Shown: positions 1,024-57,822 of the stretch, in pieces
Layout of the letters: each line of letters begins with the position of its first letter
Numbering within the stretch: the first letter of the stretch is position 1
NCBI GenBank assembly: GCA_010093605.1
Contig: MU004198.1
Span: 932,726 to 996,725, forward strand
DNA length: 64,000 nt
Reading direction: 5' to 3'
Origin: Lophium mytilinum
Taxonomy: Eukaryota
Notes under the pieces: model-generated
Told to the model about the DNA's origin: nothing
The model's input: only the letters and a program-made list of their open reading frames with translations
Databases searched by the model: none
Made by a program: the position numbers and the translations under genes

Positions 1024-1759
1024 GGTTATGGAATGCAAGTGTGCCCCCGTACTCATTCCATGAATTAATGGCTTTGTGTCTTCTCTTCGACATACAAACT
1101 TCTTACACAGCACCATAAACGTTTACCCCCCTGCGTCCGCATTGGACAGGATTTCAGTCATCACCCTCAATCTTTGCACTGTAATTGTATATCAAGGTAA
1201 ATGAACTCCGAGCACAACATCGCTTGAACAGTACTACGCTATTAGTCTAACCATTACTGCTCGCCTTCAATCCTGTTCATTTGACACCACCGAGAGGGGC
1301 GGCCCGGCTTGGTGATAGGCAATGAGTTAGGGAATAGTCTGATTTGCAATGCGTGGAATTTGTCATTCCACCTAGATGCGTAAGACCTCATGGGGTATCC
1401 GCAAGCAGTGGTAAGTGAGCGTGTACACATTTCTAGCCTGTCGCTGTAGATCTCTTGATATCGAGATCGAAACAACCAGGGAGGCCTCGATTGACTACAA
1501 CGGAGGATCTTAGTGCAGCGACATGGTGCTCAATATAGAAGTCCTAGCCAGCCATACTGTTTGTCCAAAAAGCCGAAGCCGTGGTAGTCGATATCGGGGT
1601 CAAGATTGAAAGTCTAAAACGCGAACTAAAAATCTAGTTTTCATTAAACATGCCGCGAACTCGAAACGCATAGGGGAGTGCAGGACATCAGAACTTAGAG
1701 CACTCACTTCCCCCGGCTAGGTTTTCGTCAATGTCCGCGGAGGCCCCTAGGAGGGATGC

Positions 1760-3634: not shown

Positions 3635-4079
3635 GGTGTTGTGAAGTGAATGGAACAATGCAGCTGCAGTTGCGGCCCCGTATGCAGAGTGCTGAGGGAA
3701 TGTCTGCCGTCTGGGGGCGGAGGAGTTCGACTCGCAGCGGGAATGTCGCCTGCAGTGGTGGCCCCCAGGCCGGAGAGTGGGCGGAGCTTGGCCCGGAGCG
3801 GACAAGCGCGGCCTGGGCGTCCCCTTCTCCAATGTGCCTGCCGCGAACCTCAACCTCCAGCCATCGCAGCGCACCTCACCAACCCACCGCACCGCCAACT
3901 CCTCCGTGTCCGGCCATTGTCCTCTCGCCGCGCCCAGTCGCCCTTCTCTGCGACCGCCGGACCTCCTCAGCGCTTGCAACGTCCATCTCCAGTCCGCCGC
4001 CGCGAGAGGAGCCCCCTGATCCGCCTGCCCTGCCCGTCCGCGCGACGACGTCGTCCTCGCCGCCCCAAAGTTGCCAATC

Positions 4080-5397
4080 ATGGCCGACATGAGTGCCGAG
4101 TCGATCCAGCAGAAGATCCAGATTGCCCGACGTGATGCGGAGGCTCTCAAGGACCGCATCAAGCGCAAGAAGGATGAGCTCGCCGACACCACCCGTACGT
4201 GCTCCCGGCCGGTACTCGGCCATACATATGAATCTATACTCCCCCAATTGCTTAGAGTCCCCATGCTGACCTGCTCGCCATAGTCCGCGACGTCGCACGA
4301 CAGCGCGTCGATGCGCTGCCCCGCCTCACCATGAAGACCAAGCGCACCCTCAAGGGCCATCTGGCCAAGATCTATGCCATGCACTGGTCGACCGACCGCC
4401 GACATCTCGTCTCCGCCTCCCAGGACGGCAAGCTGATCATCTGGGATGCCTACACAACCAACAAGGTCCACGCCATTCCGCTCCGTTCGTCGTGGGTCAT
4501 GACCTGCGCCTACTCGCCCAGCGGCAACTACGTAGCTTGCGGAGGACTCGATAACATCTGCTCCATATACAACCTGTCTGCTCGTGAAGGCCCCACTCGC
4601 GTTGCCCGCGAACTCTCCGGCCACTCTGGCTATCTCAGCTGCTGTCGTTTCATCAGCGACCGCCGCATCCTCACCTCCTCTGGCGACATGACCTGCGTTC
4701 TCTGGGATCTAGAAACCGGCTCCAAGGTTCACGAGTTCGCGGACCATCTTGGTGATGTGATGAGCTTGAGCATCAACCCTCTGGACGCCAATCAGTTCGT
4801 GTCCGGTGCCTGCGACGCCTTTGCGAAGCTGTGGGATATCCGCCAGCAAAAGTGCGTGCAGACGTTCGCTGCCCACGACTCGGACATCAATGCCATCCAG
4901 TTCTTCCCCAATGGAAACGCGTTTGGTACTGGATCCGATGACGCGTCTTGCCGTCTGTTTGACATCCGCGCCGACCGCGAGCTCCAGAGCTACACCGTGA
5001 GTCCCTCTCCAAATCATGGCCAGTTTCAAGCTACAAATACTGACTACTTCTGTTTCGTAGATTGGCGAGCCCGTCTGTGGCATTACTTCGGTTGCTTTCT
5101 CTGTGTCGGGACGACTACTGTTTGCCGGCTACGACGACTTCGAGTGCAAGGTAAGACTGGGGAAACATCGGACAAGGCAGAGACGACGCTAACGGTTCCA
5201 GGTCTGGGATGTTCTTCGTGGAGAGCGAGTCGGGACGCTTCAAGGTCACGACAACCGTGTCAGCTGTCTCGGCGTGAGCATGGATGCGATGAGCCTGTGC
5301 ACGGGATCGTGGGACTCAATGGTACGTTTCGCTGCGCCACCATGTTTCGAGGGGATGGAAGTGGCTAATAGTGATGTAGTTGCGTATCTGGGCATGA
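4080..5397 (+). CDS. GPB1: Heterotrimeric G-protein beta subunit (SfaD/GNB-1/Ste4 orthologue)
   Basis: Exons 4080-4194, 4284-4996, 5061-5150, 5202-5321, 5380-5397. N-terminal coiled coil, then [13 protein letters not shown]...[12 protein letters not shown]...[10 protein letters not shown]...TGSWDSMLRIWA. Confidence 0.98.
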
Positions 5398-10991: not shown

Positions 10992-12209
10992 CTACTTCGT
11001 CTCATGCCCCGGCAACTCCTGCAAGACTTGTGTATTATCCAGCTCAGCTGCCGGCGTCAGACCCCCGGCCTCTCTCTCGTTTATCAGCCTACCCAGATTC
11101 TCCTCCTGCTCATCAAGCTGTTGTAGTTGCTTCAGCCGATTCTTCTGCTCCTGTATCCTTGCGTGTTCCTGCTTCAACTGCTGCAAATGCCCGTCTTCTG
11201 GTATTGCGCCTGATGGAGGCCGGGAGTCCGACACAAGAGGAGATAGCCCTCCGCTGAGAACAGCGTGACTCGAGACTGGTGATTGCGGGTCCAGCTCGCT
11301 GATCAGAGGACTTTGGGTCATTTGGGGCGAATACGGTGATATTGGAGCAGAGGAGCCATGCAGCTCGCTCATCTTTTGGTCGAGCGCATTCGACGTCGCT
11401 TTCGTAGTCTCTATAGCTTTTGGAGCAACGTCTTGGTTGCCATGGCTGTCGTGGTTACTGTCGTCTGCGATGCTCTGTTTGTGTCTTCGGAAGAGCAGAA
11501 AGGCACATGCGAGGGCGAGAACGGCGATTGCAGCTGATCCGACGCCAATGCCAGCCTTTGTGCCAGGAGAAAGAGAATTTGACGCAGGTGGAACGGACGA
11601 GATAGACATCACCGATGTGAGCGATGATGTGGATGAGTCCAATGCAGAAACTTGAGACGTTGTCGAAGTGATAAGTCCAGTGACCAGCGAGTTTATGTCA
11701 GAAGAAGGTTCCATCGTTGTAGCTGAAGTTCTTCGAGGTATAACACCAGGACTCAATGGATCAGTTTCCAGTATGGATAAGTCGGAGGGTTTCCATCGAA
11801 TTTGTAAGCCCCAGGTAGAGGTATTAGTGTTCATTGCTGTGTTGAAGCTCGTGCAATACGAGCCACTCTCGCCGCAAGAGTAGGAGCTAATGCAATTAGT
11901 GATTTTGGAAAGTGCTTGTCAATCGCGAATCATTCTCACTAACCTTGGGCAACACCGCCATGCGAATTCCCCTTGCGTTTGAGTTGGCCCTTCAACACCA
12001 TTGCAGAGATCGCTAGGCCTCGAGCAGTCGACCGTATAAGACAACGGACAGATTGCCGGGGAATAGTATCCGACGTTAGTTAACCAGTAGTCGGTGAAAC
12101 CAGGAGGCATACAGTCGTAGCTCTCACAGGGGTAGGGTGGGGTAAACACGGTAGTAAGCGGACCCGCGGGTGCCGTCACATCGTAGGAGGTGGGACATGA
12201 AGTAGACAT
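10992..12209 (-). CDS. Single-pass membrane protein with Cys-rich N-terminus, Ser/Thr-rich stalk and coiled-coil tail (Mid2/Wsc-like architecture)
   Basis: Intron 11943-11887 (GTTAGT..CTAAT..TAG) joins ORFs 11919..12212 and 10992..11834 in frame. Contains GPLTTVFTPP, YYSPAICP, AWRCCP, TM segment AGIGVGSAAIAVLALACAFLLFRR and SEL/AEL motifs in the tail. Confidence 0.8.
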
Positions 12210-41589: not shown

Positions 41590-42619
41590 CTAGCCTAGTC
41601 GTACAATGCTCCCATCTTCGTTCACGGTCCTAGGATTGGCTGGATCGTCCATCAATAGGGCCACTATTAAGGCTGGGTCAGCACATGCACATCATCCTGG
41701 GAGCTTGCATGGACCACATACCACTATCGAAGAGTGCAATAGAGTCTGCGTTGTTATCCGCGGCCTTCTTTTTGGGGTTGGTACGACCGTTGACATCTTC
41801 TCCCAGCCTTGCAAGTTGGCCAGCCCACTTCCAACCATATGCAGGCAAGGCTATGACCGGCCTCAAGAAAAAGTCCCGTGGAGTGCTGACCTAGCAGAGA
41901 AGTCAGAACGATAACTGTTAAGCACATGGAGACATAGGAAGGTAAAGTGGGAGAAATCTTACATCGTTCAGGCCCCATTGTCTCTCTCCGTTGATCATCG
42001 CGCTATAGGCGTCTCTACCATGTGTCATTTCGTGTAGAAGGACTTTGTCAAGAAGCGAGAAGGCGTCTGCAATCTCGCTTGTTAGTTTCATCCCATTTAT
42101 TAAGCCGTAATTTCTGTCAGAGCTTGCAGTGGACGTACCGATTTGTCTAAAGTAGCTGTTCTTGCTCTCCACCTTATTGATGAAAGACCTTGCCCACTTC
42201 GTTCTCCTGACAGAATCATTCGTTTTGTATTTCTTATTCTTTATCCAGTCGATGAACCAAGGGCAGAGGTGTATCTTAGTGGGGGAGAAAGCGTCTTTTC
42301 CGTTGATGGTTACGGCTAACGAAAAAATGTTGTCCCAACCCTTGCATGCCCGATCGTTGTAGCGGATCACTTCTTGAGTCGCTAATTGATTAAGGTTATC
42401 GGCATGCTACAAATGGGGAGCTCCGTAGCTCGGGATAGGGCATGGGACCTACTCGGATCTTACTAATAATTCTTAACTGCGTCCACCACTAACAATCTAG
42501 GAGGATTATAAAGTATTATCTACTAGTAGCCATGTAAGCTTTAACTAAATACTTAAGGAATAAAAGGCAATAGGTTTTATAAGCTCTTAAACGTACTATA
42601 TCTTTATACTTAGAATAAG
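41590..42619 (-). pseudogene. 3' part of a secreted zincin metalloprotease gene (HEXXH...NADS, M35/aspzincin-like), cut by a retrotransposon
   Basis: IHLCPWF, DAFSLLDKVLLHEMTH, AYGWKWA, DNNADSIALF. Canonical introns 42138-42067, 41962-41891 and 41721-41664; stop 41590-41592. The sequence becomes RIP-like from ~42450 up to the LTR edge. Confidence 0.85.
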
Positions 42620-43092
42620 TATTATAACCTATAATACTAAGAACTTAATTACTAAGGTATTTAAGAAAGTAAGTAAGTAGATTAGATTAGTTACGCATAA
42701 TCTATATACAGGACCTAGGGGTATAAAAATCTAACGCCTTAGCGTGCTAGATTCCCCTACCTAGCTATAAGATTATAGAATAGAAGGTTATATAATAGAT
42801 TAGGGGGATTATAATAATCTAAGAGAATCTAGATTAAGAAAATTAGAATAATCTATATAATCTATAGATTTCTTAGAAGTTATTTTTCTTATTTAAGTAT
42901 ACTTATTCTTATAGATAGAAATCTTATATTTAACTTAATATTAGTAACTTATACCTACTAATAAGTAACCCTATTTTATACCTAAGATTAATTTACCTTC
43001 TATTCTAAATAATATTGCACCCCTATAAAGACTTAAACTATACTTAGCCTTATATAAGTACTTAAAGAGTATAAAAGAAATAACCTATTATA
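42620..43092 (+). repeat. 5' LTR of copy A
   Basis: TATTATAACC...AACCTATTATA (RIP-altered TG..CA), repeated at 49403-49875. Confidence 0.92.
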
Positions 43093-46000
43093 CTTTAAAT
43101 ACTACTATATTAGAGGATTATATATAAATACCTAATTAAGATAGTACTACTATAGACCTCTTAGAGAAGTACTATCTAAGGCCCTATACTAATAATAGCT
43201 AATATAGCGGGATAAATATAGACGCTACTTAACTAAGTCTAATAGCTAGAACTCTAGAATAAGACTAAGAATAAGAAAATCCTAGCCCTTTAGGGCTACC
43301 TCTAGGCCGTTTAAGGGGAGGTTATAACTAGTAAGGCAACTAGTAGCTATAGAGAATATAAGATAAAGAAACCTAAGAAGTTTTTAGATAATAGAGAAAT
43401 ACTATAAGCCTTCTTAATATAGATAAAGCTATACCTGCTTAATAATAGTAATAACCTTATATTTAAGTTAGATAAGGTCTATATAGTAGTAACCTTCCTT
43501 AAGAAAGAAGCGTTTAACTAGTTTAACCTAGTACTTATAGACTAGCTCTATACTACTAACCTAGTAGAAAGAGTAATAGAGACTAATAATATATTTAGTA
43601 ACTATTAAAATTTTAAAATAGCGCTCTAAACTACCTTTAGAGATATTAATAAAATCTAAACTATAGAATAATAAATTAAAAATCTAAAATAGTATAGCTT
43701 AGCTAGCTACTATACTTTAGAATTTATATAGATATTATTAAAGCTAGACTAGAGAAATAAAGCTCTAGTAGTATAATACTATAGAGGCCTTAAAGAGAAT
43801 ATTAAGAATAAAATCTCTAGAAGTAATAGACTAGTAATAGTCTATAGACTCTAGAAAATAGCTATCTATATTAATAATTAATAATATAAGAGATATATAG
43901 AAAAGATAGACTATAAGGGTCTATAACCCTATATACCTATATATAAAAGAGAAATAATTACTTACTACTCTAGAAAACCTATAAAACTAGACTATAGTAA
44001 ATAATATAAGAAACGCAGGTACTAACTACTATTAGATAAAGAAAAATAGGAATAATATAAGAAGGGCGCGTGCCTATAATATAGAGAGTTAGAATACTTT
44101 ATAAATAAGTGCCCTAAGGGTAATAATAACTAAATAGTAGTAGTTATAATAAAGATACCTAAAGTTAGTTATAGAGCTATATTATAGACTATATACTATA
44201 ATAATAACTACTTTATATACTAATCTAATAAATAGGAATTAGGCTACTATCTACGTGCACCTAAGGGAATGTATATAATAGCTATAATAACTAATAAGAA
44301 GTATATTAATAAGAATAACTCTAGTAATAACTACTACGCTAATATAGAATATAAAGAAATAGAAGTTAACTACCTATTAGAGATAGAAGAATTATTCTAG
44401 ATAATTAGTATACTACTTAAATAGGGGCTAAAGGCTAATAGAAAACTTCTAAGCTTAAAAGTAGATAATAATACTAAACTAGAGTCTCTAAATATATAGT
44501 AAGAGATTAATAAAGTTATATAAATATATTCCCTACTATACTAAACTAATAGAGAATAAGCTCTACTTAGAATAGTTATAAGTAACTATTATATACCTAG
44601 AACCTTTAACCTAGAGTAAGAACCCTCTAGTAAGAAGAAATAAGAAAATTTAGAATAGACTAGCGATAGAGAATTTAGCCTAGCACCTGCTAGAGAACTA
44701 CTAGAACTATATAAACGCAGTACTAGTATTTAAATCTATAGAAGTATATAACCTATAAGAAAAAAAGAAATATATAAATAGAAAGACTCTAGACTAGACT
44801 ATAACTACCTACTTTATAGATAGATATTCTAGCTATCTTATATAGAGGACTAGTATTAAGAGCACCTATTCTATAAGAAGAGCTATAAGTAGTACCTATA
44901 CTAAATAAGATTCTATATTATTATCTACCTAGTATTAGTAAGAGAGGCTAAATACTATATTATAGAAAATAAAAATAAAGAAATAGAAATAGTAATATTT
45001 ATACTAGACCTATAGTACCCTATAGACTATAGAAAAGAATAAGACTAGAGAATCTACTACTAGAACTCTTACCTTATATATTATAAAAAGAAATATGTAA
45101 ACTATTAGCCTTATAAATAGTTAAAAAATAAGTAGGCGCTTAAGCTAAAGAATAGCTAGAGTAGCTAAATAACTAGTTCTTAGAAATAATCTATAGAGAG
45201 TTATTAGCGACTATTACTACTATAGTAGAAATAGAACTAAAGTAAGTAAAGAGAAAAAAGAACCCGGTAATAAAGCCTAACTTCTTACTTATTTCTAATA
45301 ACTAACATATAATTATTAGAGTAATAATTAGTAGAAGACCTATAAGGGCACTACTAAATAGTAGCGCTTAAGAGAACTATATATTCTATACCTTTATTAA
45401 AGAAAACTAGATTCTATAGTAATTAAAAGATAAACCCTATAGATTATAATTAGTAGATGGAAGCCTAGTAAAGTATAGTAGCGGACGCGTAACTATAGAA
45501 ACTTAACTAGGAATTATATAGATTAAAGAATATAAGAAAACTATTAGTATAGATATTATAAGTATAGTAAGATATAATATAATCTTAGAAATATCTTAGC
45601 TAAGATAGTATAACCCCTAAGTTAATTAGAAATCTAGTAAAATATAATTTTAACTAGAAAGCGGACTAAAAGGCACCCTGCGCTAGAATAAGCCTAAGTA
45701 AAAACTAGAGATTAATATAATATCTTTAAGAGGCGTATAGAGAGCCTAAAGAAAAGAATAAATAATAGGCTAATTCTAGTACTAACCTATAAATTCTAAT
45801 AACTAGTAGCTAGCTAAAATAGCTAGAGTACTAGACGTGCTAAGAGTATATAAAGAATTTAGAGGAATCTTCTAGAAAAAGGTTTAGAATGCGTTATTAA
45901 AGCACTAACCTTAGAATTACTAGATACTCTTAGAACTAGGTAAATAACCTAAGTTTAGACTAATCTATTTATTATTCTAGAATAAGCTAGCAATACTTAA

Positions 46001-48739
46001 GGAATACCTAGATAAGAACCTAAAGCGAGGATTTATTTAACTATCTAAATTACCCGCAGGTTACCTAGTAATATTTATTCTAAAGAAAGATAGTAAAATA
46101 CGCCTCTATATAGATTATAGATAGCTTAATAGTATTACTATTAAGAACTATTATCTCTTACTCTTAATCTTAGAGCTAAAGAATTATTTATATAAGGTAA
46201 AATACTTTATAAAGCTAGACCTCTAAGAGGGTTACTACCTTATAAGAATAAAGGAAGAAGAAGAATAGAAAATAGCCTTTAGAACCTAATATAGATACTT
46301 TAAATATATAGTTATACTATTTAGTCTTATAAACGCGCTAGCTATATTTTAAGTAGTAGTAAATACGGCTCTATAGAGTTACCTAGACTAGTTTATAGTA
46401 GTATATCTTAATAATATTCTAATCTATTTAAAGAATAAAGAAGAGTATAAAAAGTATATTAAGAAAGTACTAGAGAAACTTAAGAAATATAATTTTATAG
46501 TTAAGCTAGAGAAATGCAAGTTCTATATATAAAGAGTTAGATTTCTAGAATATATTATTAGTCTAGGTAAGATTAAGATAGAAGAAGCTAAAGTTATATC
46601 TATTATAGAATGGCCGGAACCTAAGAACTTAAAGAAGTTATAGTTCTTTCTAGGTTTAGTAAACTACTATTAATAGTTTATTAAGGGCTACTTAAAGATT
46701 ATAGAACTACTTACTAAACTTATAAGAAAGAATATAGAGTACTAATAGGACCTAGGCGCCTAGGTTATATTTAATAACTTAAAAGTATAGTTTACTTTAA
46801 GACTAGTATTAGTAATCTTTAATCTATAAAAACTAATAACTATTAAAAGTAATATATTAGATAAAGTATTAAAAGCTATACTTAACTAGCTAGATAAATA
46901 AGGGAAGATGCACCCTATAGCGTTCTATTCTAGAAAGCTAAGCCTAGCTAAGCTAAACTATAACATCTATAATAAGAAACTGCTAGCTATAGTAGAAGCA
47001 TTTAAATAATAGAGAGTTTACCTTAAAGAAGCCTTATATATAGTATAGGTGTATATAGATTATAAGAACCTAATCTACTTTATAATAACTAAGAAGTTAA
47101 ACTAATAATAGATTAAATAGTTAGAGAAACTAGAATCTTTTAACTTTAAGATTATATATTAAAAAGGATCTAAGAATACCTATATAGATGCACTAAGTAG
47201 AAGGCCGGACTATATAGTAAAAGACTGTAGTTAAGTACTAATAATACTATAGGAAATTAGTTCTAGAACTCTTAAATTTAACTATATATAGCTAGCGGTA
47301 GCGTACTAAGCTAAAGATAAGAAATAGAAAAAAAGAATTAAGGAAGAGTAAGCTAAGGACCTAGCAAGTTAATAATTGCAAGAAACTTAAGATACTTAAA
47401 AATAGATAGGGCTACTACTATTCTAAGGATAAGTACTTATACCTATAACTCTATAAGATAAGCTTATAAGAAACTTCTATAGCGTACTAGTATATAGGTA
47501 CTAAGAAATTAATAAAATAGTTAAATAACTATCTAGAACCTTCTACTTCCTAGGCATATACTAAGTAGTAGAAAGAATTATTATAGAATATAAATGCGTA
47601 AAAAATAAGTTAGTATAATACGCACTATATAGAGTACTAAGAAGTCTACTAATACCTAAGAAAGTATAGAAATCTATAGTATAGAACTTTATAGTTAAGT
47701 TACTATAGTCTATAGAACCTATAATAGATATAAAGTATAATACTATACTAGTAATTATAGATAGATTAACTAAATATATATACTTTATACCCTACTAGAA
47801 ATTATTAATAGTAGAGAATCTAGCCTATATATTTCTATAAGTAGTTGTTAGCAATTATAGGCTACCTATAGAAATTATTTTAGACTAAGATAAGCTCTTT
47901 ATATTAAAATTCTAGTAGACCCTTATTATATAACTAGGAATAAAGTATAAGCTCTCTATAGCATTCCACCCATAAATAGATAGATAGATAGAAAGGCTTA
48001 ATTAGACTTTAAAATAATACCTATAATACTATATTAATTATAAATAGAATAATTAGGTATTACTATTACTAATAGCCTAGTTTACTTATAATAGCGCATC
48101 TATAGAGATAATAAAGGTATTACTCTTCTATATAAACTATAGTTTTAAGCTAGAGGTATATTAAGAACTATAAACTAGTAATATAAGGGCCTAGAGGGTA
48201 TTACTTTCTTTTAAAAATATTAGAGAACTATAGAAATAGCTATTAATAGATATCTAATTTCTAGTATAAAGGTTAGTATAGTATTATAACTAATATAGGC
48301 GTATTACTTCTACTTTTAAGAGGGGGGATAGAGTATACCTACTCTAAAAAAATATTAAAATAAAATAACTAAGCGGGAAACTTAACTATATTAAGATTAG
48401 ACTATTTAAAATCTAAGATATTATTAGCCTAGTAAACTATAAGCTTAGGCTACTACCTAAAATAAAGATATACCTAGTATTTTATATCTTATTATTAGAA
48501 CTAGCACTCTAGAACGCTAAGCTAGAGAATAATATTAAGGTTAATAATAATAATAAATATAAGGTTAATAAGATTCTAGACTTAAGAATATAGGGTTAGT
48601 AAATAGAGTACCTAATTAAGTAGAAAGAATATAATACCTTAGAAAATATATAGAAACTAGAAAGCTACCTTAGAAAGTACTACTAGATAGTAATATAGTT
48701 TTATTACTAGAATCTAAAATAACCTAGAATAATAGCAAT

Positions 48740-49285
48740 ATTATATTAGCTAACTAGGTAGAATCTATTAAACTAGGCAACTTAATAGAGATAGACGCAC
48801 TAATAGAAGGTAGAGCTTCCCTCTTAATATACTCTTATTCTCTCTACTTAGCCTCTTTATAATCCTCCTCTTCTAACTTCTTAAGAGTACAGAAGCCGCA
48901 TTAAAGCATATCTACTTTATAATACTTAAGTAAATCCTCTTACTTCTCTAGATACTCTACCTTTATAATTACCACTCTTATAGCTTTATAAGTAGTAGAC
49001 TTCTTAGTATAAAGCTTTGCGCAAGTCTAATTAATATAGGCAACTAGAAGAAGTAAGCTAAAAGATAATTAAAAAGAAAAGCTACCTATAATCTACTATA
49101 GTAACTCTACTAGCATTATATTTTATACACCTATAATAGATATACTCCCTATAGTAACCTAAGGCTAAAAAAAGCACCTTATAGTCTAAGAACTACTCCC
49201 AGTAGAAGAAATAAAAAACTATAGAAATACTAGAGAGAGTAATATAGGCACTAAATATAGAGTATTATTTAACCTTATTAGATAT
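48740..49285 (-). pseudogene. Antisense Zn(II)2Cys6-like/coiled-coil ORF inside copy A, RIP-inactivated
   Basis: Mirror image of 51157-~51700 in copy B. The 3' end is approximate. Confidence 0.6.
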
Positions 49286-49402
49286 AGTAGAAGAAATAGA
49301 AGGGTATAATAATACCTAAGTAGTTAGGAAATTACTAGCTATTTATCTAAGACCCTACTATAAAGTAACTTTTAGGCTAAAAGCCTTAAAAAAAGAAGTA
49401 AG

Positions 49403-49875
49403 TATTATAACCTATAATACTAAGAACTTAATTACTAAGATATTTAAGAAAGTAAGTAAGTAGATTAAATTAGTTACGCATAATCTATATACAGGACCTA
49501 GAGGTATAAGAATCTAACACCTTAGCGTGCTAGATTCCCCTACCTAGCTATAAGGTTATAGAATAGAAGGTTATATAATAGATTAGGGGGATTATAATAA
49601 TCTAAGAGAATCTAGATTAAGGGGATTAGAATAATCTATATAATCTATAGATTTCTTAGAAGTTATCTTTCTTATTTAAGTATACTTATTCTTATAGATA
49701 GAAACCTTATATTTAACTTAATATTAGTAACTTATACCTACTAATAAGTAACCCTATCTTATATCTAAGATTAATTTACCTTCTATTCTAAATAATATTA
49801 CACCCCTATAAAGACTTAAACTATACTTAGCCTTATATAAGCACTTAAAGAGTATAGAAGAGATAACCTATTATA
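49403..49875 (+). repeat. 3' LTR of copy A
   Basis: Direct repeat of 42620-43092 of the same length, preceded by a purine-rich tract. Confidence 0.92.
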
Positions 49876-50245
49876 TATAACTATACTACCGCAACCTAAA
49901 TAGATAATACCTATTTTAAAATATAGTATTACCGGCAACTTCTTAGTAAGTATACTAAGTAAATTAAAGACCTCTATATCTAAGATCTATTCTTAATCTA
50001 AGTATACCTTAAGCTAAATATAACTATTCTAGTAGGGTTATATTACAGCGTTAGGCTATAAAGCCTATATACGCTTTTCTTAGAATTCTATAAGAATAAT
50101 ATACTACGCCTTATAGGCGGAGTTAATAGATAACTATTTAGGGATATATCTCTACGCAAGATTAAAGCATATATTATTTATTACGCAAGTCTTTTCTATT
50201 ATTATTAACCCGGCCTCTAATCTTTTATAATTAGTAATCTCTACT

Positions 50246-50566
50246 ATAGTTCTATATAGTCTCTTTCTTATCTTATTACTTCTACCTATATCTATTTCTA
50301 CGTACTAAATTAATACATTATGCGTTCTAAAAGGGATTAATAAAGATATTAAAACTGTAATAATAAATGCTTTTATAATAGTAGATGCGGCTATTAGATA
50401 TCTAGATACTATTACCTATACCCTAGAGACTATAGACTTAATTAAATAGCTATTTATTATAAAGAGAGGTTAAAATCCCCGCAATAAAAATAGAATATAG
50501 AAGGTCTAAGATATACTTTAGAGTATTAGAAATAATTATAGAAATAAAGTTAATATAAGTACTTAT
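50246..50566 (+). pseudogene. Inverted, RIP-mutated first exon of the metalloprotease gene
   Basis: ATA (from ATG) at 50246 opens (M)VLYSLFLILLLLPISISTY*INTLC...NAFIIVDAAI...TIDLIK*LF. This reads as a signal peptide plus N-terminus whose stops are all TAA/TAG, as expected from C>T. ATAAGT (possible GTAAGT donor) lies at 50555, just before the TSD. Confidence 0.7.
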
Positions 50567-51039
50567 TATAATAGGTTATCTCTTCTATACTCTTTAAGTG
50601 CTTATATAAGGCTAAGTATAGTTTAAGTCTTTATAGGGGTGCAATATTATTTAGAATAGAAGGTAAATTAATCTTAGGCATAAGATAGGGTTACTTATTA
50701 GTAGATATAAGTTACTAATATTAAGTTAAATATAAGGTTTCTATCTATAAGAATAAGTATACTTAAATAAGAAAGATAACTTCTAAGAAATCTATAGATT
50801 ATATAGATTATTCTAATTCCCTTAATCTAGATTCTCTTAGATTATTATAATCCCCCTAATCTATTATATAACCTTCTATTCTATAACCTTATAGCTAGGT
50901 AGAGAAATCTAGCACGCTAAGGCGTTAGATTCTTATACCTCTAGGTCCTGTATATAGATTATGCGTAACTAATTTAATCTACTTACTTACTTTCTTAAAT
51001 ATCTTAGTAATTAAATCCTTAGTATTATAGGTTATAATA
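50567..51039 (-). repeat. 3' LTR of copy B
   Basis: Reverse complement of the 473-bp LTR. Confidence 0.92.
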
Positions 51040-51156
51040 CTTACTTCTCTCTTTAAGGCTTTTAGCCTAAAAGTTACTCTATAGTAGGGTCTTAGATAAA
51101 TAGCTAGTAATTCTCTAACTACTTAGATATTATTATACCCTTCTATTTCTTCTACT

Positions 51157-51700
51157 ATATCTAATAAGGTTAAATAACACTTTATACTTAGTGCCTATAT
51201 TACTCTCTCTAGTATCCCTATAGTTTTTTATTTCTTCTACCGGGAGTAGTTCTTAGACTATAAGGTGCTTTTCTTAGCCTTAGATTACTATAAGAAGTAT
51301 ATCTATTATAGGTATATAAAATATAACGCTAGTAGAGTTACTATAGTAGATTATAGGTAGCTTTCCTTTTTAATTATCTTTTAGCTTACTTCTTCTAGTT
51401 GCCTATATTAATTAGACTTGCGCAAAGCTTTATACTAAGAAGTCCGCTACTTATAAAGCTATAAGAGTAGTAATTATAAAGATAGAGTATCTAGAGAAGT
51501 AAAAGGATTTACTTAAGTATTATAAAGTAGATATACTTTAACGCGGCTTCTATACTCTTAAGAAGTTAGAAGAGAAGAATTATAAAGAGGCTAAGTAGAG
51601 AGAATAAGAGTATATTAAAAGGGAAGCCCTATCTTTTATTAGTGCGTCTATCTCTATTAAGTTGCCTAGTTTAATAGATTCTACCTAGTTAGCTAATATA
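51157..51700 (+). pseudogene. Antisense Zn(II)2Cys6-like/coiled-coil ORF inside copy B, RIP-inactivated
   Basis: TAY codons (from TGY) spaced x2-x6-x9-x2-x7 at 51229-51324. Intron-like 51353-51398, then a coiled-coil segment reconstructing to MLRRGFCTLEELEEE. The 3' end is approximate. Confidence 0.65.
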
Positions 51701-54700
51701 ATATTACTATTATTCTAGGTTATTCTAGATTCTAGTAATAGAACTATATTACTATCTAGTAGTACTTTTTAAGGTAGCTTTCTAGTTTCTATATATTTTC
51801 TAAGGTATTATATTCTTTCTACTTAATTAGGTACTCTATTTACTAACCCTATATTCTTAAGTCTAGAATCTTATTAACCTTATATTTATTATTATTATTA
51901 ACCTTAATATTATTCTCTAGCTTAGTATTCTAGGGTGCTAGTTCTAATAATAAGACGTAAAATACTAGATATATCTTTATTTTAGGTAGTAGCCTAAGCT
52001 TATAGTTTACTAGGCTAATAATATCTTAGATTTTAAATGGTCTAATCTTAATATAGTTAAGTTTCCCGCTTAGTTATTTTATTTTAATATTTTTTTAGAG
52101 TAGGTATACTCTATCCCCTCTCTTAAAAGTAGGAGTAATATACCTATATTAGTTATAATACTATACTAACCTTTATACTAGAAATTAGATATCTATTAAT
52201 AGCTATTTCTATAGTTCTCTAATATTTTTAATAGAAAGTAATACCCTCTAGGCCCTTATATTACTAGTTTATAGTTCTTAATATGCCTCTAGCTTAAAAC
52301 TATAGTTTATATAGAAGGGTAATACCTTTATTATCTCTATAGATGCGCTATTATAAGTAAACTAGGCTATTAGTAATAGTAATACCTAATTATTCTATTT
52401 ATAATTAATATAGTATTATAGGTATTATTCTAAAGTCTAATTAAGTCTTTCTATCTATCTATCTATTTACGGGTAGAATACTATAGAGAGCTTATACTTT
52501 ATTCCTAGTTATATAATAAGGGTCTACTAGAATTTTAATATAAAGAGCTTATCTTAGTCTAAAATAACTTCTATAGATAGCCTATAATTACTAACAACTA
52601 CTTATAGAAATATATAGGCTAGATCCTCTACTATTAATAATTTCTAATAAGGTATAAAGTATATATATTTAGTTAATCTATCTATAATTACTAGTATAGT
52701 ATTATACTTTATACCTATTATAGGTTCTATAGACTATAGTAACTTAACTATAAAGTTCTATACTATAGATTTCTATACTTTCTTAGATATTAGTAGACTT
52801 TTTAGTAGTCTATATAGTATATATTATACTAACTTATTTTTTATATATTTATATTCTGCGATAATTCTTTCTACTACTTAGTATATGCCTAGAAAGTAGA
52901 AGGTTCTAGATAGTTATTTAACTATTTTATTAATTTCTTAGTACCTATATACTAGTGCGCTATAGAAGTCTCTTATAAGCTTATCTTATAGAGTTATAGG
53001 TATAAGTACTTATTCTTAGAATAGTAGTAGCCCTATCTATTTTTAAGTATCTTAGGTTTCTTATAATTATTAACTCGCTGGGTCCTTAGCTTACTCTTCC
53101 TTAATTTTTTTTTCCTATTTCTTATCTTTAGCTTAGTATACTACCGCTAGCTATATATAGTTAAATTTAAGAGTTCTAGAACTAATTTCCTATAGTATTA
53201 TTAGTACTTAACTGCGGTTTTTTACTATATAGTCTAGCCTTCTACTTAGTGCGTCTATATAGATATTCTTAGATTCTTTTTAATATATAATCTTAAAGTT
53301 AAAAGATTCTAGTTTCTCTAACTATCTAACCTATTATTAGTTTAACTTCTTAGTTATTATAAAGTAGATTAAATTCTTATAATCTATATATACCTATACT
53401 ATATATAAGGCTTCTTTAAGGTAAACTCTCTATTATTTAAATGCTTCTACTATAGCTAGCAGTTCCTTATTATAGATATTATAGTTTAGCTTAGCTAGGC
53501 TTAGCTTTCTAGAATAGAACGCTATAGGGTGTATCTTCCCTTATTTATCTAGCTAGTTAAGTATAGCTTCTAATACTTTATCTAATATATTACTTTTAAT
53601 AGTTATTAGTTTTTATAGATTAAAGATTACTAATACTAGTCTTAAAGTAAACTATACTTTTAAGTTATTAAATATAATCTAGGCGCCTAGGTCCTATTAG
53701 TACTCTATATTCTTTCTTATAAGTTTAGTAAGTAGTTCCGCAATCTTTAAGTAGCCCTTAATAAACTATTAATAGTAGTTTACTAAACCTAGAAAGAACT
53801 ATAACTTCTTTAAGTTCTTAGGTTCTAGCTATTCTATAATAGATATAACTTTAGCTTCTTCTATCTTAATCTTACCTAGACTAATAATATATTCTAGAAA
53901 TCTAACTCTTTATATATAGAACTTGCATTTCTCTAGCTTAACTATAAGATTATATTTCTTAAGTTTCTCTAGTACTTTCTTAACATACTCTTTATACTCT
54001 TCTTTATTCTCTAAATAGATTAGAATATTATTAAGATATGCTACTATAAACTAGTCTAGGTAACTCTATAAAGCTATATTTACTACTACTTAGAATATAG
54101 CTAGCGCGTTTATAAGACTAAATAGTATAACTATATACTTAAAGTGTCTATATTAGGTTCTAAAGGCTATTTTCTATTCTTCTTCTTTCTTTATTCTTAT
54201 AAGGTAGTAACCCTTTTAAAGGTCTAGCTTTATAAAGTATTTTACCTTATATAAATAATTCTTTAGCTTTAAGATTAAGGGTAAGAGATAATAGTTTTTA
54301 ATAGTAATACTATTAAGCTATCTATAATCTATATAGAGGCATATTTTACTATCTTTCTTTAAAATAAATATTACTAGGTAACCTATAGATAATTTAGATA
54401 GTTAAATAAATTCTTACTTTAGGTTCTTATCTAGGTATTTCTTAAGTGTCGCTAGCTTATTCTAGGATAATAAATAGATTAGTCTAAACTTAGGTTATTT
54501 ACCTAGTTCTAAGGGTATCTAGTAATTCTAAGGTTAGTACTTTAGTAATATATTCTAAACCTTTTTCTAGAAGATTCCTCTAAATTCTTTATATACTCTT
54601 AGCATGTCTAGTACTCTAGCTATTTTAGCTAGCTACTAGTTATTAGAATTTATAGGTTAGTACTAGAATTAGCCTATTATTTATTCTTTTCTTTAGGCTC

Positions 54701-57349
54701 TCTATACGCCTCTTAAAGATATTATATTAATCTCTAGTTTTTACTTAGGCTTATTCTAGCGCAGGGTGCCTTTTAGTCCGCTTTCTAGTTAAAATTATAT
54801 TTTACTAGATTTCTAATTAACTTAGGGGTTATACTATCTTAGCTAAGGTATTTCTAAGATTATATTATATCTTACTATACTTATAATATCTATACTAATA
54901 GTTTTCTTATATTCTTTAATCTATATAATTTTTAGTTAAGTTTCTATAGTTACGCGTTTACTACTATACTTTACTAGGCTTCTATCTACTAATTATAATC
55001 TATAGGGTTTATCTTTTAATTACTATAAAATCTAGTTTTCTTTAATAAAGGTATAGAATATATAGTTCTCTTAAGCGCTACTATTTAGTAGTACCCTTAT
55101 AGGTCTTCTACTAATTATTACTCTAATAATTATATGTTAGTTATTAGAAATAAGTAAGAAGTTAGACTTTATTACCGGGTTCTTCTTTCTCTTTACTTAC
55201 TTTAGTTCTATTTCTACTATAGCAGTAATAGTTGCTAATAACTCTCTATAGGTTATTTCTAAGAACTAGTTATTTAGCTACTCTAGCTATTCTTTAGCTT
55301 AAGCGCCTACTTATTTTTTAACTATTTATAAGGCTAATAGTTTATATATTTCTTTTTATAATATATAAGGTAAGAGTTCTAGTAGTAGATTCTCTAGTCT
55401 TATTCTTTTCTATAGTCTATAGGGTACTATAGGTCTAGTATAAATATTACTATTTTTATTTCTTTATCCTTATTTTCTATAATATAGTGTTTAGCCTCTC
55501 TTACTAATACTAGGTAGGTAATAATATAGAATCTTATTTAGTATAGATACTACTTATAGCTCTTCTTATAGAATAGGTACTTTTAATACTAGTTCTCTAT
55601 ATAAGATAGCTAGAATATCTATTTATAAAGTAGATAGTTATAGTCTAGTCTAGAGTCTTTCTATTTATATATTTCTTTTTCCTTTATAGGTTATATACTT
55701 CTATAGATTTAGATACTAGTACTATATCTATATAGTTCTAGTAGTTCTCTAGCAGGTGCTAGGCTAAATTCTCTATTGCTAGTCTATTCTAAATTTTCTT
55801 ATTTCTCCTTACTAGAGGGTTCTTACTCTAGATTAAAGGTTCTAGGTATATAATAGTTGCTTATAACTATTCTAAGTAGAGCTTATTCTCTATTAGTTTA
55901 GTATAGTAGAAAATATATCTATATAACTTTATTAATCTCTTACTATATATTTAGAGACTCTAGTTTAGTATTATTATCTACTTTTAAGCTTAGAAGTTCC
56001 CTATTAGCCTTTAGCCCCTATTTAAGTAGTATACTAATTATCTAGAATAATTCTTCTATCTTTAATAGGTAGTTAACTTCTATTTCTTTATATTCTATAT
56101 TAGCGTAGTAGTTATTACTAGGGTTATTCTTATTAATATACTCCTTATTAGTTATTATAGCTATTATATATATTCTCTTAGGTGCACGCAGGTAGTAGCC
56201 TAATTTCTATTTATTAGATTAGTATATAAAGTAGTTATTATTATAGTACGCGGTCTATAATATAGCTCTATAACTAACTTTAGGCGTCTTTATTATAACT
56301 ACTACTATTTAGTTATTATTATTCTTAGGGCACTTATTTATAAAGTATTCTAACTCTCCGCATTATAGGCACGCGCCCTTCTTGCATTATTTCTATTTTT
56401 CTTTATCTAATAGCGGTTAGTACCTATATTTCTTATATTATTTACTATAGTCTAGTTCTATAGGTTCTCTAGAGTAGTAAGTAATTATTTCTCTCTTATA
56501 TATAGATATATAGAGTTATAGGCTCTTATAGTCTATCTTTTCTATATATCTCTTATATTATTAATTATTAATATAGATAGCTATTTCCTAGAGTCTATAG
56601 ACTATTACTAGTCTATTACTTCTAGAGATTTTATTCTTAATATTCTCTTTAAGGCCTCTATAGTATTATACTACTAGAGCTTTATTTCCCTAGTCTAGCT
56701 TTAATAATATCTATATAAATTCTAAAGTATAGTAGCTAGCTAAGCTATACTATTTTAGGTTTTTAATTTATTATTCTATAGTTTAGATTTTATTAATGTC
56801 TCTAAAGATAGTTTAGAGCGCTATTTTAAAATTTTAATAGTTACTAAATATATTATTAGTTTCTATTACCCTTTCTACTAGGTTAGTAGTATAGAGCTAG
56901 TCTATAAGTACTAGATTAAACTAGTTAAATACTTCTTTCTTAAGAAAGATTACTACTATATAGACCTTATCTAACTTAAATATAAGATTATTACTATTAT
57001 TAAGTAGGTATAGCTTTATCTATATTAAGAAGGCTTATAGTATTCCTCTATTACTTAAGAACTTCTTAAGTTTCTTTATCTTATATTCTCTATAGCTACT
57101 AGTTATCTTACTAGTTATAACCTCTTCTTAAATGGCCTAGAGGTAGCCCTAGAGAGCTAGAATTTTCTTATCCTTAGTCTTATTCTAGAGTTCTAGCTAT
57201 TAGACTTAGTTAAGTAGCATCTATATTTATTCTACTATATTAGCTATTATTAGTATAGAGCCTTAGATAGTACTTTTCTAAGAGGTCTATAGTAGTACTA
57301 TCTTAATTAGGTATTTATATATAATCCTCTAATATAGTAGTATTTAAAG

Positions 57350-57822
57350 TATAATAGGTTATTTCTTCTATACTCTTTAAGTACTTATATAAGGCTAAGT
57401 ATAGTTTAAGTCTTTATAGGGGTGCAATATTATTTAGAATAGAAGGTAAATTAATCTTAGGTATAAAATAGAGTTACTTATTAGTAGGTATAAGTTACTA
57501 ATATTAAGTTAAATATAAGGTTTCTATCTATAAGAATAAGTATACTTAAATAAGAAAGATAACTTCTAAGAAATCTATAGATTATATAGATTATTCTAAT
57601 CCCCTTAATCTAGATTCTTTTAAATTATTATAATCCCTCTAATCTATTATATAACCTTCTATTCTATAACCTTATAGCTAGGTAGGGGAATCTAGTATAC
57701 TAAGGCGTTAAATTCTTATACCCCTAGGTCCTGTATATAGATTATGCGTAACTAATCTAATCTACTTACTTACTTTCTTAAATACCTTAGTAATTAAGTC
57801 CTTAGTGTTATAGGTTGTAACA
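57350..57822 (-). repeat. 5' LTR of copy B
   Basis: Reverse complement of the 473-bp LTR. Ends TGTAACA on the plus strand at 57822. Confidence 0.92.

Follow-up and report, generated by a model that had tools for sequence, protein, structure and literature searches.

Probable RIP-inactivated remnants of a brtn-family antisense accessory gene in two chromovirus copies of Lophium mytilinum

The window analysed here, a stretch of 64,000 nucleotides (nt) of Lophium mytilinum contig MU004198.1 (positions 932,726 to 996,725), has a GC content of about 0.5 except between 42.6 and 57.8 kb, where it drops to 0.25-0.27. This block contains two copies of a 7.25-kb Ty3/gypsy chromovirus, both heavily altered by repeat-induced point mutation (RIP). 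Each carries, between pol and the 3' long terminal repeat (LTR) and antisense to gag-pol, a stretch that is very probably the RIP-inactivated remnant of a gene of the brtn family, a group of antisense accessory genes found in a clade of fungal Ty3/gypsy chromoviruses. Copy A lies on the plus strand at 42616-49875, with LTRs at 42616-43092 and 49399-49875, and copy B on the minus strand at 50567-57820, with the 3' LTR at 50567-51043 and the 5' LTR at about 57344-57820. Together they form an inverted repeat of 7254 nt, 96% complementary, arranged tail to tail with 691 nt in between. The two LTRs of each copy measure about 477 nt and are 97% alike.

Read through its stops, the frame of position 43095 in copy A matched the Pfam families RVT_1 (E 4e-16), RT_RNaseH (1.4e-16) and RT_RNaseH_2, followed by SH3_Tf2-1 below threshold and then by a chromodomain motif that is legible in the translation. 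The LTRs, the order reverse transcriptase, RNase H and integrase and the C-terminal chromodomain identify the element as a Ty3/gypsy chromovirus. In the databases, the closest matches are polyproteins of fungal Ty3/gypsy elements that carry PF00078, PF17917/17919, PF00665, PF17921, PF24626 and PF00385 (the chromodomain). P0004 and P0005 are the closest natural pol proteins, with 46% identity to the mutated query and E-values of 1e-263 or better. The signature of RIP is plain in both copies: copy A has a GC content of 0.259, the TpA/ApT index is 1.75-1.77 in the copies versus 0.82-0.83 in the flanks, the (CpA+TpG)/(ApC+GpT) index is 0.11-0.12 versus 1.18-1.20, and 287 of the 289 differences between copies A and B are transitions. 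No clear target-site duplication of either copy could be found in the RIPed flanks. The 691-nt spacer (49876-50566) is RIP-like too (GC 0.259, TpA/ApT 1.49) and has no match elsewhere in the block. A polypurine tract region (51044-51061, minus strand) adjoins the 3' LTR of copy B, in a position equivalent to that of a related metagenomic element, L013, in which the tract ...GAAAGGAGGGA... precedes the LTR start TGTCAC.

The antisense gene of copy B is read on the plus strand, between the LTR and the end of the pol chromodomain at about 51677. Exon 1 (51157-51352) begins with ATA and contains a basic N-terminus and two in-frame stops. It also contains six TAY codons in a single frame (51229-51324) spaced as Y-x2-Y-x6-Y-x9-Y-x2-Y-x7-Y, at the places where relatives have a six-Cys cluster. 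A predicted phase-1 intron of 46 nt follows at 51353-51398 and moves the frame by +1; in copy A as in copy B its sequence is ATAGGT...TTAAT...CTAG. Exon 2 (51399-51688), delimited with the RIP-aware score described below, has the charged stretch KIEYLEK*KDLLKYYKVDIL*RGFYTLKKLEEK in the frame of 51044, a long helix, remains of the motif RLRKQK...RGL..LDELE and an acidic tail. Its 3' end is uncertain, the first possible terminal TAG being at 51686-51688. By alignment of the copies, the mirror gene of copy A occupies 49285-48754 on the minus strand (exon 1 49285-49090, intron 49089-49044, exon 2 49043-48754), with the Tyr pattern at 49213-49118. The first-pass annotation had already pointed to the six TAY codons and their mirror in copy A, the location between chromodomain and 3' LTR, the 46-nt intron-like segment and the charged stretch after it, and all of them were found again. 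Copies A and B are 98% identical across the gene. Both have ATA in place of the ATG start and eight in-frame stops in the 166 codons of the two-exon model, and so both are dead and no product is made here.

Intact relatives were recovered from metagenome contigs, in which P0004 as a query found 80 related loci (numbered with L). The contig of P0004 itself was not among the loci returned and the closest intact element is thus absent from the comparison. A scan of viral contigs with P0004 gave no relative. A six-frame scan of the 80 loci for the pattern with real Cys produced 13 matches, of which 12, in 11 loci, were antisense to pol and located directly 3' of it, or at the matching place in circularly assembled contigs. 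Three loci have an uninterrupted open reading frame (ORF) (L006, 196 aa; L005, 192 aa; L023, 198 aa), and the remaining six-Cys loci have the Cys cluster and the rest of the protein in different frames. A hidden Markov model (HMM) of the family detected the gene in 15 of the 80 loci, every time antisense and just 3' of pol, and in 13 of the 33 loci that include the pol C-terminus plus at least 700 nt downstream. The intact ORFs, of about 190 aa, have the six Cys as C-x2-C-x6-C-x8-10-C-x2-C-x6-7-C, within the Zn2Cys6 spacing C-x2-C-x6-C-x5-12-C-x2-C-x6-8-C, and a long helix bearing RLRKQK...RGL..LDEL. Nine locus sequences share without exception the six Cys, the Asp that follows them, RLRK and other residues. 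The proposal of an accessory gene encoded by the element, with a Cys cluster, was thus borne out by six-Cys ORFs that coincide with the window gene in location, strand and register. The intact relatives were also checked for Tyr or His replacing Cys, and for a closed frame, and they turned out to have Cys and open frames. In a pol tree obtained with a short search, in which several of the elements scored as lacking the gene are incomplete contigs, the gene-bearing elements cluster (two changes versus a mean of 7.5 after shuffling, with so few in none of 500 shuffles). The window copy is sister to P0004 and P0005 in this tree, with a value of 100 in the Shimodaira-Hasegawa-like approximate likelihood ratio test. 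The thirteenth match, in locus L058, is a canonical Gal4-type cluster (CEECRRRKARCDRARPKCGYCLETDAVC; 1199-1282, plus strand) in a 145-codon ORF on a flank and far from the retroelement, which is an ordinary fungal transcription factor gene unrelated to brtn.

The window gene was placed in this family by RIP-aware profile scoring, in which each codon may be any codon convertible into it by C to T and G to A changes, with the controls treated alike. The N-terminal half of the profile scored 105.5 in the frame of 51157, ending at 51351 at profile position 77, and the C-terminal half, over 51404-51595 and in the frame of 51044, scored 86.5. In its other frames the stretch gave 39-50, the next-best independent scores among 114 tiles of copy B on both strands were 62.2 (N-half) and 65.9 (C-half), and 100 dinucleotide shuffles gave 50.8 +/- 4.6 and 45.5 +/- 3.4, respectively. 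Each exon independently is therefore about 12 standard deviations above the shuffles, in the right order and frames and with the break at the position of the family intron. The plain family HMM, run on six frames of the window, had its best match at the right place (51461-51610) and a weak one (independent E-value 0.035, 2.4 bits). It also gave weak matches of coiled-coil type (...L.RLRKRRRM..., independent E-value 0.089) at 11082-11440 on the minus strand, in DNA of normal GC, where a charged helix of a host gene was most likely matched by chance.

At the level of single codons, all six Cys columns are TAY in the window, each one G to A reversal away from TGY. The Asp that follows the last Cys is preserved or can be restored by one or two reversals, as can the greater part of vRRGR.K, RL.KQK and RGF..L..LEE. 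Copy A is the less mutated at several codons, with TGT versus TAT of copy B at 51313-51315 and GGT versus GAT. The column at 51313-51315 is Arg in the family and the path of mutation here was likely CGT to TGT to TAT, judging from the codons of the two copies. Where the copies differ, the less mutated codon is the one nearer the family consensus, both for CGG and CGC (Arg) in copy B versus TGG and TGC in copy A, and for ATG (Met) in copy A versus ATA in copy B. The window stretch thus has the position and orientation of brtn and, through the family profile and hence indirectly, homology to BRTN, and lacks an intact frame.

The split of the gene into two frames is also common in the family. In eight loci, corresponding to seven distinct elements, the HMM match breaks at profile positions 68-79 versus 76-86, and intact members often have a phase-1 intron about 10 residues past the last Cys. 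With splice models ranked by their family HMM score, four loci gave short antisense phase-1 introns with GT..AG ends: L013 (3870-3925, 56 nt, donor GTTTGT) and L007 (6178-6232, 55 nt, donor GTCTGT), both with a branch-like CTGAC, and L002 (317-365, 49 nt) and L046 (2914-2961, 48 nt), both with donor GTGAGT and no branch-like motif noted. The models for L001, L003 and L008 were ambiguous, with longer candidates of mixed phase. The window intron is located at profile position 77/79, like those of L002, L007, L013 and L046, and it interrupts the frame in phase 1 at 196 nt from the start codon, the offset found in L046 too; both the place and the phase of the 46-nt segment are thus those of the family intron. 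Its ATAGGT fits a RIPed GTAGGT donor, since the A after T is what a TpG to TpA change would leave.

Splicing could be confirmed at the RNA level for L013. Parts of the L013 stretch appeared in five soil metatranscriptome runs, four of which were mapped to the locus, and a 423-nt RNA contig of run X1 omits exactly L013:3870-3925, with 193 and 230 matching letters on either side. The ends of this segment are CT..AC on the plus strand, that is GT..AG on the antisense strand. Hence an antisense transcript exists in this relative and is spliced at the predicted site, which also supports the spliced nature claimed for the gene by the first-pass annotation. As these data are contigs, neither the expression level nor the transcript ends can be read from them, including the contig ends at 4221/4222 and the uncovered stretches of L013. 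A second antisense GT..AG intron of 70 nt (L013:4122-4191, donor GTGAGT, CTGAC near its 3' end) was seen in RNA contigs of runs X3 and X4, which come from different studies; the short side of the joint has only 30-31 letters and the intron is tentative. Its removal takes away the annotated start codon and the first six codons, with no in-frame ATG upstream as far as the sequence could be read, and the conserved Met-Pro directly before the first Cys could be the start of a shorter isoform.

An intron can survive retrotransposition when it is antisense to the genomic RNA, a principle used in antisense-intron indicator genes, and the intron described here persists in the elements because of this orientation. 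In the pol tree the intron-less L005 and L006 are the nearest relatives of the intron-bearing L007 and L002, respectively. Within this small clade, the nesting of intron-less beside intron-bearing copies indicates that the antisense intron has been lost, or gained, more than once. Were such losses exact, they would point to reverse transcription of the spliced antisense RNA; the DNA of intron-less and intron-bearing relatives is only 62-65% identical, too divergent for exact boundaries to be drawn.

The family is large. A profile search of 1.84 billion representative sequences retrieved 1782 clusters at E<=1e-3, of which 852 remain at E<=1e-10 and 109 at E<=1e-30, most of them with proteins of 130-310 aa, and 150 family sequences agree to 90% or more at the six Cys, the Asp, an Arg and a Gly. 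Named members are called 'hypothetical' or 'uncharacterized' in the databases and come from Sordariomycetes (Thyridium, Annulohypoxylon, Gaeumannomyces) and Leotiomycetes (Botrytis, Sclerotinia, Monilinia, Stromatinia, Hymenoscyphus, Pseudogymnoascus, Mollisiaceae). One of them, P0299, is annotated as 'putative BRTN [Botrytis cinerea]'. It matches the L023 ORF at E 6.7e-33 with 55% identity, and hhalign of the family alignment A3 against it gave a probability of 99.8% (E 5.8e-28). Because BRTN belongs to the family, the gene is the brtn of Boty-like elements. The UniProt name of the 90% cluster mates of P0299 and of its Sclerotinia relatives is 'Zn(2)-C6 fungal-type domain-containing protein', presumably from a signature other than Pfam. 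From its title and from citing passages, the work of Zhao et al. (2011, Virology 417:248) reportedly described brtn as an 'additional antisense gene' of Boty-like retrotransposons. The passages available of three articles (PMC8365987, PMC4227169, PMC7264820) cite that paper. In one of them brtn is given as an additional ORF of BcGypsy1 that is missing from the latest B05.10 annotation (PMC8365987), and in another it is listed, for Botrytis and Sclerotinia, with the antisense additional ORFs (aORFs) between pol and the 3' LTR, whose function is said there not to be known (PMC7264820). This kind of gene has therefore been known as brtn since 2011 and its database names already refer to Zn(2)-C6. 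In the literature searched, no paper presents brtn as spliced or as having a zinc cluster, something that the original 2011 paper may do. Against that literature, the points that may be new are how large the family is, the conservation of its antisense intron with the confirmation in RNA, the presence or absence of this intron between sister elements and the predicted architecture of the protein, some of which may also be in the 2011 paper. To this known kind the window contributes a dead member from a different lineage of elements.

The family gene is under purifying selection: when six relatives were compared pairwise, pN was smaller than pS in all 15 pairs, and the six pairs with unsaturated dS had dN/dS values of 0.22-0.42.

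These data have to be set against two other explanations of the stretch. The Tyr spacing and the 'coiled coil' might be accidents of AT- and TA-rich RIPed DNA that never coded for anything, and several facts speak for this. Tyr makes up about 10% of the codons in all six frames of the RIPed element, and dinucleotide-preserving shuffles of one element (n=300) contained a mean of 0.33 matches to the Tyr pattern, with at least one in 28% of them and at least two in 4.7%. Each copy actually has a second match to the Zn2Cys6-like Tyr expression, antisense inside pol (52653-52751, plus strand, and 47691-47789, minus strand), that holds stops and has a RIP-aware profile score within the null range. 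It is a chance match and illustrates how easily such patterns arise in RIPed DNA. The Tyr pattern by itself is consequently weak evidence and not beyond chance. Furthermore, a Pfam search of the raw RIPed translations in the three plus frames gave no family at all, and the plain HMM match was as weak as described above. However, accidents of composition do not account for RIP-aware scores about 12 standard deviations above the shuffles in both exons, in the right order and frames and broken at the family intron, and the intact homologues at the equivalent place of related elements refute them altogether, so that we give this explanation hardly any credence. Alternatively, the conserved strand could be the sense one, a C-terminal extension of pol, the antisense ORF being merely its open mirror. 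The sense strand of L013 is indeed open from 3690 to 4412 (plus strand), in the frame of pol, right after its single stop and across the whole antisense gene, and P0004 extends about 290 aa past the chromodomain (residues ~1180-1469), as do some database 'pol' proteins. Yet in the antisense frame the conservation of the six Cys and of several motifs reaches 90% or more, the splice junctions seen in RNA have their GT..AG on the antisense strand, pol of L013 ends before the gene (at 3686), the pN and pS values given above were obtained in the antisense frame, and the sense-strand tails are little conserved in the consensus of the pol alignment. The open sense strand over the L013 gene is probably itself the shadow of a GC-rich antisense gene rich in Glu and Arg, and a conserved sense extension appears very improbable. 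A brtn-family gene killed by RIP remains the reading that we prefer for the window.

The intact protein has a basic N-terminus, the six-Cys cluster, a helix of about 60 residues (RLRKQK...RGL..LDELE) and an acidic tail with a conserved D-W. An AlphaFold2 model of the L006 ORF had a mean predicted local distance difference test (pLDDT) value of 87.4, with a helix at 19-33, short helices at 41-46 and 60-65 right after the two C-x2-C pairs, a lone helix of 59 residues at 76-134, another helix at 139-158 and a less confident tail. When the whole model was compared by Foldseek, Ppr1, Gal4, Pho7, Put3, Hap1 and Leu3 ranked first (E 0.4-5). A model of the 45-residue cluster alone (pLDDT 77.7) retrieved 27 PDB chains at E<=10 and, among the matches listed, all were Zn2Cys6 proteins (Pho7, Gal4, Hap1, Ppr1, Put3, Lac9, Leu3, AlcR, Cep3). 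TM scores were 0.5-0.6, the root mean square deviation (rmsd) was 0.9-3.8 A for most, with 0.9 A over 31 columns for Ppr1, and the Foldseek probability reached 0.96. The models are suggestive of a diverged Gal4-type cluster, in a protein that would dimerise through the lone 59-residue helix.

As for the LTR, the distance from the start codon to it is 119 nt in L013 and 114 nt in the window. The RNA contigs of L013 extend to within 36 nt of the LTR, which makes the LTR edge, or a site inside U3, a candidate promoter of the antisense gene. In relatives, short repeats in partly inverted arrangement are clustered in U3, immediately upstream of the TATA box. The word GGATCAC is found eight times in L013 (4340-4450), seven times in L002 (800-930) and three times in L007 (6660-6740), and the repeated words differ in L023, L046, L008 and L003. 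In the window LTRs, TAATCTA/TAGATTA appears seven to eight times together with GGGATTAT, as expected from RIP of GGATCAC/GTGATCC. Repeated enhancer words are common in LTRs, and these repeats are candidate sites of a factor that comes either from the element itself or from the host. A mechanism can be outlined, one that we hold in even balance. The antisense mRNA would begin at the inner boundary of the 3' LTR or close to it, its product would dimerise through the long helix and bind DNA with the zinc cluster, the short inverted repeats in U3 being the candidate sites, and the protein would modulate transcription of its own element, working like HBZ of human T-cell leukemia virus type 1 (HTLV-1).

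Besides the weakness of the Tyr pattern on its own, a number of results weigh against such an element-encoded zinc-cluster regulator. The gene had no detectable copy in 20 of the 33 assessable loci, some of them of low GC, where the plain HMM would miss one, and it is therefore not essential to all chromoviruses of this group. The RNA contigs of L013 end 36 nt short of the LTR in which the promoter would lie, and in the LTR-proximal DNA of eight relatives there was no recurrent arrangement of CGG-N(0-15)-CCG or CCG-N-CGG, a result that is neutral with regard to the predicted binding of zinc and DNA. The Foldseek E-values of the cluster were 0.26-3.3, high because the domain is tiny, and VIA-align of the whole model, in which the long helix prevailed, gave Z values no higher than 3.6. 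Nothing significant came from a profile search of PDB sequences, only coiled-coil noise and LAC9 at E 3.5. Pfam Zn_clus (PF00172) matched six of nine locus ORFs at E 0.015-0.42 with at most 15.8 bits, 15 of the 150 family sequences at a cut-off of E<=0.01, with 5.3e-4 as the best value, and BRTN itself with 13.7 bits, so the gathering score of 21 bits was never reached and membership of this Pfam family cannot be assigned. The Zn(II)2Cys6-like label of the first-pass annotation thus holds for the spacing of the Cys, is suggested by the predicted folds listed above, and fails at the threshold of the Pfam model.

Some of these points also bear on a different view of the gene, namely that it encodes a real brtn-family protein that is no autoregulator of the element, acting instead on host genes, in the tethering of integration or in RNA or protein binding (particle assembly, anti-silencing). 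It would agree with the subthreshold Zn_clus scores, with a region between Cys2 and Cys3 that has no Gal4-type pattern of Lys and Arg (consensus CsrCerrGlsC) and with the fact that, in the part of PMC7264820 available, neither brtn nor the other antisense aORFs between pol and 3' LTR have a known function. On the other hand, the predicted fold matches only DNA-binding Zn2Cys6 domains among the matches listed, the order of cluster, linker and long helix is as in Gal4, Ppr1, Put3 and Hap1, and the acidic tail with its conserved Trp may resemble an activation region. We consider a role other than autoregulation rather unlikely, and keep regulation of the element by its own dimeric factor as the working model.

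Among known systems, the closest is the Boty-like brtn itself, which shares with the window a Ty3/gypsy element with chromodomain, the antisense gene between pol and 3' LTR and a homologous protein. The pol of L023 groups with that of Monilinia fructigena. The window copies differ in being RIP-dead and in belonging to another lineage, sister to P0004 and P0005 and not to the Monilinia group. The gene is split by the intron in the window copy and in eight of the 11 full locus copies, whereas L023, the locus closest to BRTN, is intron-less. With Gal4-type factors (Gal4, Ppr1, Put3, Hap1, Leu3, Pho7) the family has in common the six-Cys spacing and, in the models, the two short helices at the C-x2-C pairs, the linker and the long helix, and the predicted domain superposes on Ppr1, Pho7, Gal4 and Leu3 with 0.9-2.2 A over 31-36 columns. 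Unlike them, brtn proteins have only about 190 aa, lack the middle homology region of fungal transcription factors, are encoded by a retrotransposon, remain below the Pfam gathering score and have the basic residues between Cys2 and Cys3 replaced (consensus e-r-r-G-l-s).

HBZ of HTLV-1 is the product of an antisense spliced gene expressed from the 3' LTR, a dimerising basic leucine zipper (bZIP) factor that modulates viral transcription, and by analogy it is most plausibly what the fungal gene works like. Both are minus-strand spliced genes next to the 3' LTR for a small protein with a DNA-binding-type domain and a dimerisation helix, these two being predicted in the case of brtn. They differ in the domain (bZIP versus zinc cluster, with no relation in sequence or fold) and in the carrier (an animal deltaretrovirus versus a fungal chromovirus), and LTR-driven transcription and a regulatory role are established for HBZ and would apply to brtn only by analogy. 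The aORFs of the plant Ty3/gypsy elements RIRE2, Grande, Retand and PvRetro13 are alike in position, orientation and conservation within families; they belong to plant elements and, in the part of the source available, no zinc cluster is reported for them (PMC7264820).

For the window itself the result is modest, since it contains relics killed by RIP that are mainly of use for annotation. They also show that RIP-aware profile alignment can recover genes missed by ordinary searches. Its wider interest is in the family. Antisense accessory genes that lie in the interval from pol to the 3' LTR exist in many plant and fungal LTR retrotransposons, none of them with a known function in the part of the source available (PMC7264820), and for brtn the statement 'function unknown' can now be replaced by a testable hypothesis, that of a dimeric DNA-binding regulator encoded by the element. 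In its broadest and quite speculative form, which we think improbable as it stands, the brtn family would be a widespread, retroelement-encoded, minimal Gal4-like dimer acting on its own U3 repeats and setting the balance between sense and antisense transcription, with the spliced antisense mRNA occasionally returned to the element. If this were true, brtn would be the fungal counterpart of HBZ of HTLV-1, and the exact presence or absence of the intron between sister elements would mean that the spliced antisense mRNA is sometimes reverse-transcribed or recombined back into the retrotransposon.

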